This document shows positions 205 through 1,229 of a stretch of 64,000 nt of DNA, one piece after another. The position numbers and the translations under genes are program-made. This DNA is from Escherichia phage MiataMamis. Below the pieces are notes generated by a model that had not been told where the DNA came from, searched no databases, and saw only the letters and a list, made by a program, of their open reading frames with translations. Location: the sequence record PP925834.1. One strand, 5' to 3'. Position 1 is the stretch's first letter. Each line of letters opens with the position of its first letter.

Positions 205-468
205 ATGGCAACAGAGTTAAAATTTGCATCAAACCGTAAAACTAAGAAGTATCTGTCCTCAGTAGCTCCAGGCACTGTGGTGATGTTTGTTGATGAACTT
301 GGGGATGTGAATACAGCACTTGTTGTAAAATCACATCCTGCAAACATATATGTTGGGGTATTTGACCTGTTCAGAAAGGTGTTTGTAGAACTACCTCACA
401 GTTTGGTTGTTACAGAAATGGATGCCTGCATAGAAATTCTTGGCGAAGTTATGGTGGAGGAACAATAA
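205..468 (+). CDS. small hypothetical protein, paralog 1 of a 4-gene tandem family
   Basis: 87 aa ORF; RBS GAGGAGG upstream; shares with the next three ORFs the pattern K..F..GTVV...D...V...FDL...L...V.E.D..I.ILGE; stop overlaps next start as TAATG. Confidence 0.7.
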   Translation: MATELKFASNRKTKKYLSSVAPGTVVMFVDELGDVNTALVVKSHPANIYVGVFDLFRKVFVELPHSLVVTEMDACIEILGEVMVEEQ

Positions 469-731
469 TGGCTACTAACATTGTATTCAATTCTAAGGTG
501 AAGAACAAAAAGCGTGCAGACAGTTTTCCGTGTGGGACCGTGGTAAGTTGCGACGGAGACGGCATTCAAAACATAGTTATGATTGTCAAAACAGGAGAAC
601 ATTGTGTGTGGGGGTTCGATTTAGAAAATAATGAGTTGTACGATCTGCCGCCAAACATGAAAGTTACAGAGCTTGACACCAAAATTACCATCCTTGGAGA
701 GACAAGCTATTCAAAAGAAGGAGGAGAATAA
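468..731 (+). CDS. small hypothetical protein, paralog 2
   Basis: 87 aa; TAATG coupling at both ends; clear similarity to paralog 1 (MAT..F.S..K.KK...GTVV...FDL...LP...VTE.D..I.ILGE). Confidence 0.7.
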   Translation: MATNIVFNSKVKNKKRADSFPCGTVVSCDGDGIQNIVMIVKTGEHCVWGFDLENNELYDLPPNMKVTELDTKITILGETSYSKEGGE

Positions 732-994
732 TGACCACAAAAATCACTATCGCAGAGCCGAAAGCTAACACTCAGCCTATCGAAAAGTTTAAGTGCGGTG
801 AGGTGGTAACATTCACACCAGATAATGAAGATGCTAAGATTTTCGCAATGGTCACAGCTGAGTGGATGTGTGACAACACCACACAAGTACTACGTTTCGA
901 TACCTACCTCACAGATGAGATCCGAAACGATAAGATCGTGACAGGTGTGGACACTGAAATTATTTTCTACAAGAGCTTTTTAGAGGGTTTCTGA
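731..994 (+). CDS. small hypothetical protein, paralog 3
   Basis: 87 aa; same length and conserved positions (CGEVV, FD, DTEI) as paralogs 1 and 2. Confidence 0.65.
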   Translation: MTTKITIAEPKANTQPIEKFKCGEVVTFTPDNEDAKIFAMVTAEWMCDNTTQVLRFDTYLTDEIRNDKIVTGVDTEIIFYKSFLEGF

Positions 995-995
995 T

Positions 996-1229
996 ATGGC
1001 AAAAATTCGTAAATTATCCAGCAATCAGGTTGTGAAAGACTTTGAATCTGGAGAGATTCTGTATGTTCGTGATGCAGATGACGAAGGTGAAGATCTTGTT
1101 ATGTTGGTGGGGCACGCTGAGGACGGATGCATCCAAGCTGTTTTTCTTGAAACAGCTATGGTGCACTGGATAGAGCTGGACTTGAAAGCACGAAAACCTA
1201 AAGCAGAAATCCTGATTTACGAAGATTAA
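996..1229 (+). CDS. small hypothetical protein, paralog 4 (most diverged)
   Basis: 77 aa; weaker but recognisable shared pattern (GEIL.V.D...GEDL.ML); starts 2 nt after paralog 3 stop. Confidence 0.55.
   Translation: MAKIRKLSSNQVVKDFESGEILYVRDADDEGEDLVMLVGHAEDGCIQAVFLETAMVHWIELDLKARKPKAEILIYED

Follow-up and report, generated by a model that had tools for sequence, protein, structure and literature searches.

Directly downstream of a DUF2201/VWA gene, the 64,000-nt stretch of Escherichia phage MiataMamis analysed here (the window; record PP925834.1, one strand, to whose positions all coordinates refer) carries four consecutive small open reading frames (ORFs), hereafter genes 1-4. This locus raises the question of whether the four ORFs are genuine genes descended from a single ancestor and, if so, whether they have diverged under diversifying selection as host-takeover or anti-defence proteins, as the original prediction for this DNA had proposed. 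The phage is an rV5-like coliphage of the genus Vequintavirus (Murica type): bases 1-4700 share 94-97% identity with approximately 120 phage genomes in GenBank, all of which are rV5-like Vequintavirus genomes, with Vequintavirus murica as the best match. The explanation that we favour, by a narrow balance of probability, is that the array consists of lineage-restricted, acidic small-barrel paralogs that act as protein-binding modules of an early host-takeover operon. The descriptive part of this explanation is very likely correct, whereas its mechanistic part, in which each protein is a stand-alone protein-binding module, is tentative.

The positions and lengths of the four ORFs (Table 1) agree with those originally given. 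Each ORF has its own Shine-Dalgarno (SD) sequence at a spacing of 7-9 nt from the start codon, and the SD sequences of genes 2-4 are embedded in the glutamate-rich last codons of the preceding gene. The junctions between genes 1 and 2 and between genes 2 and 3 both read AATAATG, in which the stop and start codons share one base (TAATG), and the starts of genes 1, 2 and 3 are spaced exactly 263 bp apart, so that the identical junctions and the regular spacing described for the first three ORFs are indeed present. The junction between genes 3 and 4 reads TGAtATG. The proposed translational coupling is borne out by the stop/start overlaps and the embedded SD sequences. The equal length of 87 aa is peculiar to MiataMamis, and the orthologous types in other phages range from 83 to 88 aa. 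In every annotated relative inspected, the array ORFs are annotated as separate hypothetical genes (e.g. Murica gp013-gp016 and EduardKellenberger bas59_0050-0053).

It could be argued that sequencing errors have broken a single longer gene into the array ORFs, or that these are chance ORFs with chance similarity, and a few frameshifted fusion or truncated proteins are in fact found in the databases (P0026, P0035 and P0040-P0043, most of which trace to a single contig and a few to two). However, the relatives inspected contain four, three or one separate family genes that are never fused; gene 4 is present in all 117 phage records that gave a tblastn match, where genes 1 and 4 are found as intact, full-length copies; synonymous changes far outnumber non-synonymous changes in every ORF; and the similarity statistics described below are significant. 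The fragmentation of a single gene, which the original prediction itself had named as an alternative, is therefore refuted, as is the chance origin of the ORFs, and comparative analysis of the sequences establishes the four ORFs as real, separately translated and translationally coupled genes.

The proteins encoded by genes 1 and 2 share 37% identity over 87 aa (BLASTP E-value, 2.7e-12), and both match the same PHROG, 10698, over its whole profile (E-values, 7.6e-43 and 6.5e-41). Genes 3 and 4 match the whole profiles of PHROG 12861 (8.5e-62) and PHROG 12046 (5.1e-55), respectively. The three PHROGs are treated in that database as unrelated families of 'unknown function', whereas our analysis assigns gene 3 to the gene-1/2 family, to which gene 4 probably also belongs. 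When gene 3 was aligned with a profile of genes 1 and 2 and the rV5 gene gp014, hhalign gave a probability of 91% and an E-value of 1.1e-6, and the alignment was colinear across 78 columns; with a hidden Markov model (HMM) of the gene-1/2 family, gene 3 scored 17.6 bits, compared with a maximum of 11.0 bits among 2,000 shuffled sequences. Gene 4 scored 16.3 bits with an HMM that was based on genes 1-3 plus related sequences but excluded gene 4 itself, a score that none of 2,000 shuffled sequences reached. It ranked fourth among the 408 six-frame ORFs of the window with this HMM (E-value, 1.7e-4), the next ORF scoring only 6.2 bits, and in each of the related loci the same HMM singled out the gene-4 orthologue alone. 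Thus, gene 4 likely belongs to the paralogous family. These comparisons leave no doubt about the paralogy of genes 1 and 2, support it strongly for gene 3 and make it probable for gene 4.

The proposal of a tandem array of diverged paralogs generated by serial duplication is supported by similarity beyond chance for all four genes, although the strength of the similarity falls from genes 1 and 2 to gene 3 and then to gene 4. The comparison by pairwise and profile alignment that had been suggested as a check gave significant results for genes 1-3, and gene 4 was recovered by the HMM that excludes it but not by hhalign. The conserved scaffold that had been quoted for all four proteins (GTVV, FDL, V.E.D and I.ILGE) is literally present in genes 1 and 2 only, and genes 3 and 4 retain just its pattern. 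No further family members were detected by HMM among the 408 ORFs. Two neighbouring ORFs that were considered as a fifth paralog, an 81-aa ORF at 1692-1937 and a 91-aa ORF at 2564-2839, were rejected because their similarity was not significant in the shuffle tests. At the DNA level, Tandem Repeats Finder detected no tandem repeat of approximately 263 bp, and the synonymous sites are saturated between paralogs (pS, 0.7-0.9), indicating that the duplications are old. These comparisons show that a single ancestral gene gave rise to the array, as far as can be read from present-day sequences, through ancient tandem duplication.

Comparison with rV5 revealed how differently the four genes behave between strains, and this variation is the most telling result of the analysis. 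In blastn, the window aligns with the rV5 genome at 96% identity over 1-219 and 720-2999, and nothing aligns in between. Homology is lost approximately 15 nt past the first ATG and is regained at the SD sequence of gene 3, and rV5 holds approximately 230 bp, with a single gene, in place of the intervening cassette. Therefore, rV5 carries three genes here: gp014 (85 aa), gp015 and gp016. The product of gp014, which we call type C, is approximately 40% identical to those of gene 1 (type A) and gene 2 (type B), while the products of genes 3 and 4 match those of gp015 and gp016 at 100% amino acid identity despite approximately 4% DNA divergence. By tblastn, the first position (slot 1) holds two copies (A + B) in 43 phage records and one copy (C) in 74, including rV5. 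The GC content of the cassette (40-42%) is unremarkable compared with that of the window (44%). A divergent lineage (L005-L007) keeps both A' (58% identical) and B' (70%); its genes 3 and 4 are 97% and 95% identical to those of the window, whereas identity falls to 68% for the neighbour w6 and to 55% for the neighbour w7. These patterns show slot 1 to be an exchangeable cassette, occupied by A + B here, by a single C in rV5 and by further types, D and E, elsewhere, and the positions of the breakpoints indicate that the swap took place by recombination at the conserved start-codon region and at the SD sequence of the next gene. Among the genomes compared, genes 3 and 4 are near-invariant genus-wide, and only slot 1 is swapped between strains.

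We also considered whether type C is an A/B chimera generated by unequal crossing-over, and this idea was rejected because its identity is uniform (37-42%) in both halves. Gene 4 occurs as two alleles of 77 and 78 aa, the longer of which contains one additional Ala ('GHAAEDG'). Each of the two slot-1 types is found with each gene-4 allele (Murica, EdH4, rV5 and FV3), and thus recombination has occurred inside the array, within <1 kb.

The ratios of non-synonymous to synonymous substitution rates (dN/dS) were estimated by the pooled Nei-Gojobori method for whole genes within the genus, where few distinct sequences are available. The values for orthologs are 0.05 for A, 0.04 for B, 0.05 for C, 0.02 for gene 3 and 0.09 for gene 4, alongside 0.09 and 0.03 for the flanking genes; between gene 3 and its counterpart in L005, dS is approximately 1.06 and dN is 0.02. 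Purifying selection of this strength shows that every ORF encodes a protein whose separate function is being maintained. The same finding, together with the perfect amino acid identity of genes 3 and 4 to their rV5 counterparts, contradicts the ongoing diversifying selection that had been inferred originally.

This result bears directly on the hypothesis of an arms race, according to which each paralog inhibits a different bacterial defence and the divergence of the paralogs reflects ongoing diversifying selection. The hypothesis gains some credit from slot 1, which resembles an accessory region in that alternatives of approximately 40% identity lie between 96%-identical flanks and are distributed over 43 and 74 records, from the presence of a family member at another position of the operon in one contig (L013, see below) and from the small size and acidity of the proteins and their probable early operon beside an Srd-like gene. 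However, the dN/dS values of the five ortholog groups all lie within 0.02-0.09, each of the 117 records with a match contains near-identical copies of genes 3 and 4, as does the divergent lineage, A' and B' are both kept in that lineage and are thus not transient, and no PADLOC or Pfam match was obtained. Moreover, the genes of rV5-like phages are not mentioned in the paper on a screen of phage accessory genes (Silas et al., bioRxiv 10.1101/2023.04.06.535777). The regions described in that paper share with slot 1 the allelic replacement of genes between conserved flanks in closely related genomes, but genes 3 and 4, being core genes, do not show this feature; in addition, accessory regions hold unrelated alternative counter-defence genes, whereas the slot-1 alternatives are homologous (37-41% identity). 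Therefore, an arms race is an unlikely explanation for the array, and an anti-defence role is plausible for slot 1 only.

Table 1. Positions of the array genes, their SD sequences and associated features in the window
Feature	Position	Strand	Description
Upstream gene, 3' end	1-189	+	DUF2201_N + DUF2201 VWA-like 'putative metallopeptidase'; identified from neighbours in EduardKellenberger, Murica and rV5; Pfam PF13203/PF09967 on orthologue
Gene 1 SD (GGAGG)	194-198	+	From sequence; ribosome-binding site annotated at matching place in Murica
Gene 1, type A, variable slot	205-468	+	87 aa; isoelectric point (pI) 5.0; Murica gp013; PHROG 10698
Exchangeable cassette (bodies of genes 1 and 2)	220-719	+	Delimited by blastn against rV5
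Gene 2 SD (GGAGG)	456-460	+	Within C-terminal V-E-E codons of gene 1
Gene 2, type B, variable slot	468-731	+	87 aa; pI 4.9; Murica gp014; PHROG 10698
Gene 3 SD (GGAGG)	720-724	+	Within C-terminal E-G-G-E codons of gene 2; point where rV5 homology resumes
Gene 3 (P3), conserved	731-994	+	87 aa; pI 4.5; rV5 gp015; PHROG 12861
Gene 4 SD (GAGGG, weaker)	983-987	+	From sequence; ribosome-binding site annotated in Murica
Gene 4 (P4), conserved, probably the most diverged paralog	996-1229	+	77 aa; pI 4.6; rV5 gp016; PHROG 12046

An exhaustive HMMER profile search of 1.84 billion representative proteins identified only six true relatives, all of which are rV5-like and two of which represent new types (D and E), and scans of IMG/VR yielded two rV5-like contigs only. 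A word-indexed search with gene 1 alone returned only copies of at least 93% identity. In a 124-kb metagenomic rV5-like contig (L010/L011), the type-E protein P0045 is encoded by the sole family gene after DUF2201 and is followed directly by homologues of the three genes that come next after the array in the window. The type-D protein P0044 (63% identical to C) is encoded at 1355-1606 of another contig, L013, between a HAD-like gene and a Cys-rich 'CKCKSYN' gene of the same operon; this site corresponds to approximately 3312-3482 in the window, which is occupied by an unrelated 56-aa ORF. Since type D sits elsewhere in L013, a family gene can take more than one operon slot. No family member was found beside DUF2201 in 4MG, Seu621, TH18, UPEC06 or CR9, which represent other Vequintavirinae genera, although DUF2201 is kept in these phages; the small ORFs that adjoin it there were examined as candidates and are not family members. 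Thus, the copy number after DUF2201/VWA is zero in other Vequintavirinae genera, one in the distant metagenomic relative, three in rV5 and four here. On this sampling, the family is restricted to one lineage, comprising Vequintavirus (rV5-like) phages and a few metagenomic relatives, with proteins of 77-88 aa.

The variation in copy number also bears on the possibility that the paralogs form a hetero-oligomeric complex, in which proteins of the same fold would be produced at a coupled, fixed stoichiometry, perhaps together with the neighbouring VWA (DUF2201) protein and a MoxR ATPase. Small-barrel proteins often assemble together, and such a complex would be consistent with the stop/start overlaps and embedded SD sequences, with the common predicted fold, with the position directly downstream of DUF2201 that is kept in rV5-like phages and in the single-copy contig L010 and with a MoxR ATPase gene nearby. 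On the other hand, copy numbers of one, three or four, with one or two genes in slot 1, are awkward for a fixed assembly, other Vequintavirinae have DUF2201 and MoxR without a family member, and the member in L013 lies away from DUF2201. We consider this complex quite unlikely. As for the two candidate partners, the MoxR-type ATPase gene of UPEC06 and CR9 is located directly upstream of DUF2201/VWA on the same strand (locus 1167-4039), while the MoxR and DUF2201/VWA genes of rV5-like phages are in divergent units. The MoxR/VWA pairing suggests the presence of a phage MoxR-VWA system.

Structure prediction was performed with AlphaFold2 for genes 1 and 4, which were compared through the sequence alignment and through Foldseek library ranks. 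Gene 1 was modelled, from an alignment of the gene-1/2/3 family, as an all-beta protein with a mean predicted local distance difference test score (pLDDT) of 79.8 and a predicted template modelling (TM) score of 0.67, and gene 4, modelled in an independent run from its own orthologues only, is also all-beta (pLDDT, 71.6), with a poor C-terminus. The predicted strands (residues 25-29, 35-42, 50-54, 59-62 and 73-79 in gene 1; 21-25, 32-42, 45-50, 55-60 and 71-75 in gene 4) coincide once mapped through the sequence alignment. Structure comparison places the models in the SH3-like/Tudor/KOW class as five-stranded, highly bent antiparallel barrels, whereas the Sm/Hfq-like arrangement, in which an N-terminal alpha-helix precedes a five-stranded barrel carrying Sm motifs, was not found. 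Therefore, the proteins are predicted to be small all-beta barrels of the SH3/Tudor-like type. The nearest fold class is that of the SH3-like small beta-barrels, which includes Tudor, PWWP, KOW, the C-terminal domain of ribosomal uL2 and the C-terminal domain of LexA/cI, but the array proteins have no sequence-profile membership in the SH3-like/Tudor/KOW superfamilies in Pfam. All four proteins are acidic (pI 4.5-5.0), and gene 4 has a net charge of -8 in 77 residues.

When the gene-4 model was searched against BFVD by Foldseek, type-C and type-A entries appeared at ranks 9 and 10, but with an E-value of 0.17 and TM scores of 0.39-0.52. BFVD also contains phage barrel proteins of similar length (70-90 aa), including those of Vibrio phage Thalassa (A0A2H5BHC0), Serratia phage Hera and Escherichia phages EP335, LAMP and SU7 and N4 Gp21 (TM scores, 0.55-0.65; E-values, 5e-4 to 5e-2), and several of these phages have more than one. 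These proteins are uncharacterized and were not detected by the exhaustive profile search, and their modelled resemblance to the array proteins may reflect the common small-barrel fold only.

Searches for a known function were negative. No match above noise was obtained in Pfam (best E-values of 0.019-0.13, far below the gathering scores) or, for the array proteins, in NCBIfam and PADLOC, and the best hit in a sequence-profile search of the PDB was 2mmp_A (E-value, 0.2), itself an uncharacterized protein. No curated family, solved structure or paper assigning a function was found in our database and literature searches. The rV5 genome paper (PMC3606486) discusses neither the array genes nor any paralogy, a CRISPRi-ART study included EdH4 in single-gene tests only and not genome-wide, and a paper on daunorubicin mentions the Vequintavirinae for drug sensitivity only. 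A literature search for transcriptomes turned up nothing relevant.

The upstream protein, with DUF2201_N and DUF2201 domains, has 486 aa in total, and its gene, within which the window starts, ends with a TAA stop codon at 187-189, as read from the sequence. In relatives, this gene is preceded by an Srd-like 'anti-sigma factor' gene, and the authors of the rV5 genome paper defined genes 11-26 as one transcriptional unit (PMC3606486). The array thus comprises genes 3-6 of a unit that opens with the Srd-like gene, and its apparent location at the very start of an early unit, as described originally, is an artefact of where the window begins. Our promoter and terminator scans found nothing notable within the array; the sole strong terminator-like hairpin is located at approximately 4683-4704, and related records annotate a unit-closing terminator at the equivalent position. 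In L010/L011, a TnpB-like gene (OrfB_IS605 / Cas12f1-like_TNB; 1119-2258) is inserted between the divergent units, directly upstream of the gene that precedes DUF2201, that is, at the position of the Srd-like gene.

Directly after the terminator, a 1878-aa ORF on the minus strand (4719-10355), which matches a gene that the records of relatives label as a lateral tail fibre with Ig-like/intimin domains, opens the structural module. A tail-fibre module only approximately 3.5 kb downstream, albeit on the other strand, and a 149-aa gene after the array that belongs to PHROG 6790 and is labelled 'tail protein' might suggest that the array encodes accessory proteins for the virion or its morphogenesis, such as small decoration or assembly factors. 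However, the array belongs to the divergent, non-structural unit 11-26, and a bidirectional terminator closes this unit ahead of the fibre genes; no peptides of gp14-16 are present in the mass-spectrometry supplement for the rV5 virion; and the labels 'tail protein', 'HNH' and 'holin' are inconsistent between records. A virion role is therefore very improbable.

In the explanation that we favour, the array genes would be early and non-structural, because they belong to a sigma-70-driven, Srd-led unit and were not detected in the rV5 virion. Each protein would be a stand-alone protein-binding module that modulates, in a stoichiometric manner, a partner of its own. Genes 3 and 4 would address conserved targets, which may belong to the core machinery of the host or be a phage protein, and slot 1 would address strain-variable targets, e.g. 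host defence or host-range factors. A more specific version can be formulated, in which the proteins constitute a novel type of Tudor/KOW-like phage effector that stands alone: the products of genes 3 and 4 would attach to a conserved host machine, with RNA polymerase as one candidate, and the slot-1 cassettes (A + B, C, D and E) would be interchangeable specificity modules for strain-variable host factors or defences, so that cassette swaps retune the phage to its host. RNA polymerase is named because bacterial Tudor/KOW-like modules, e.g. the C-terminal domain of UvrD, bind this enzyme and because, to our knowledge, rV5 has no T4-type late-transcription factors. This version is speculative and decidedly improbable as it stands.

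Several points weigh against the favoured explanation. Gene 4 was not significant by hhalign (E-values, 0.015 and 0.031), and the statistics for its membership, including the Foldseek E-value, are modest. The early timing is deduced from predicted promoters only, and absence from one virion mass-spectrometry data set is weak evidence. No homology or experiment tying a family member to a partner or a phenotype was found. Finally, the near-invariance of genes 3 and 4 would equally fit a phage partner, e.g. the adjacent VWA/MoxR proteins.

The genes themselves are not new, because PHROG 10698/12861/12046, rV5 gp014-gp016 and Murica gp013-gp016 are the same genes, already deposited and clustered. 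The new findings are the unification of the three PHROGs, the assignment of a predicted fold, the slot-1 polymorphism with its sharp boundaries, the range of copy numbers (0-4) in the subfamily and the purifying selection. As the results stand, they mainly clean up the annotation, yielding real genes, one family rather than three and a predicted small beta-barrel fold, and the locus is a neat but unexceptional example of how phage genomes are organized. Should the functional guess be true, the array would be a compact natural experiment, in which a single fold exists in as many as four coupled copies, of which two are frozen, and one slot is exchanged between coliphages that are otherwise 96% identical. 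In that case, the swap between A + B and C could expose a determinant of host range or counter-defence, and genes 3 and 4 could point to a conserved host target of the genus. rV5-like phages are therapeutic-type coliphages and have been used against E. coli O157.

Several irregularities were also noticed in the database records for this region. In the rV5 reference genome (NC_011041), the DUF2201/VWA gene is split into the overlapping genes gp012 and gp013 (1257-2718), which align as two pieces in tblastn, whereas a single 486-aa ORF is present in other phages; the split is probably due to a frameshift or sequencing error in the reference. The product names around the array are inconsistent between records: the Srd-like and DUF2201 proteins are both named 'HNH endonuclease' in RefSeq, and the 149-aa gene product (1246-1695), a 'tail protein' in some records, is a 'holin' in SYGMH1. 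These names are evidently propagated errors. Furthermore, sixteen GenBank records of 'Campylobacter phage' (MG0656xx; host, Campylobacter jejuni) share 94-99% identity with rV5-like coliphages throughout the region, and these records look either mislabelled or derived from contaminating coliphages.

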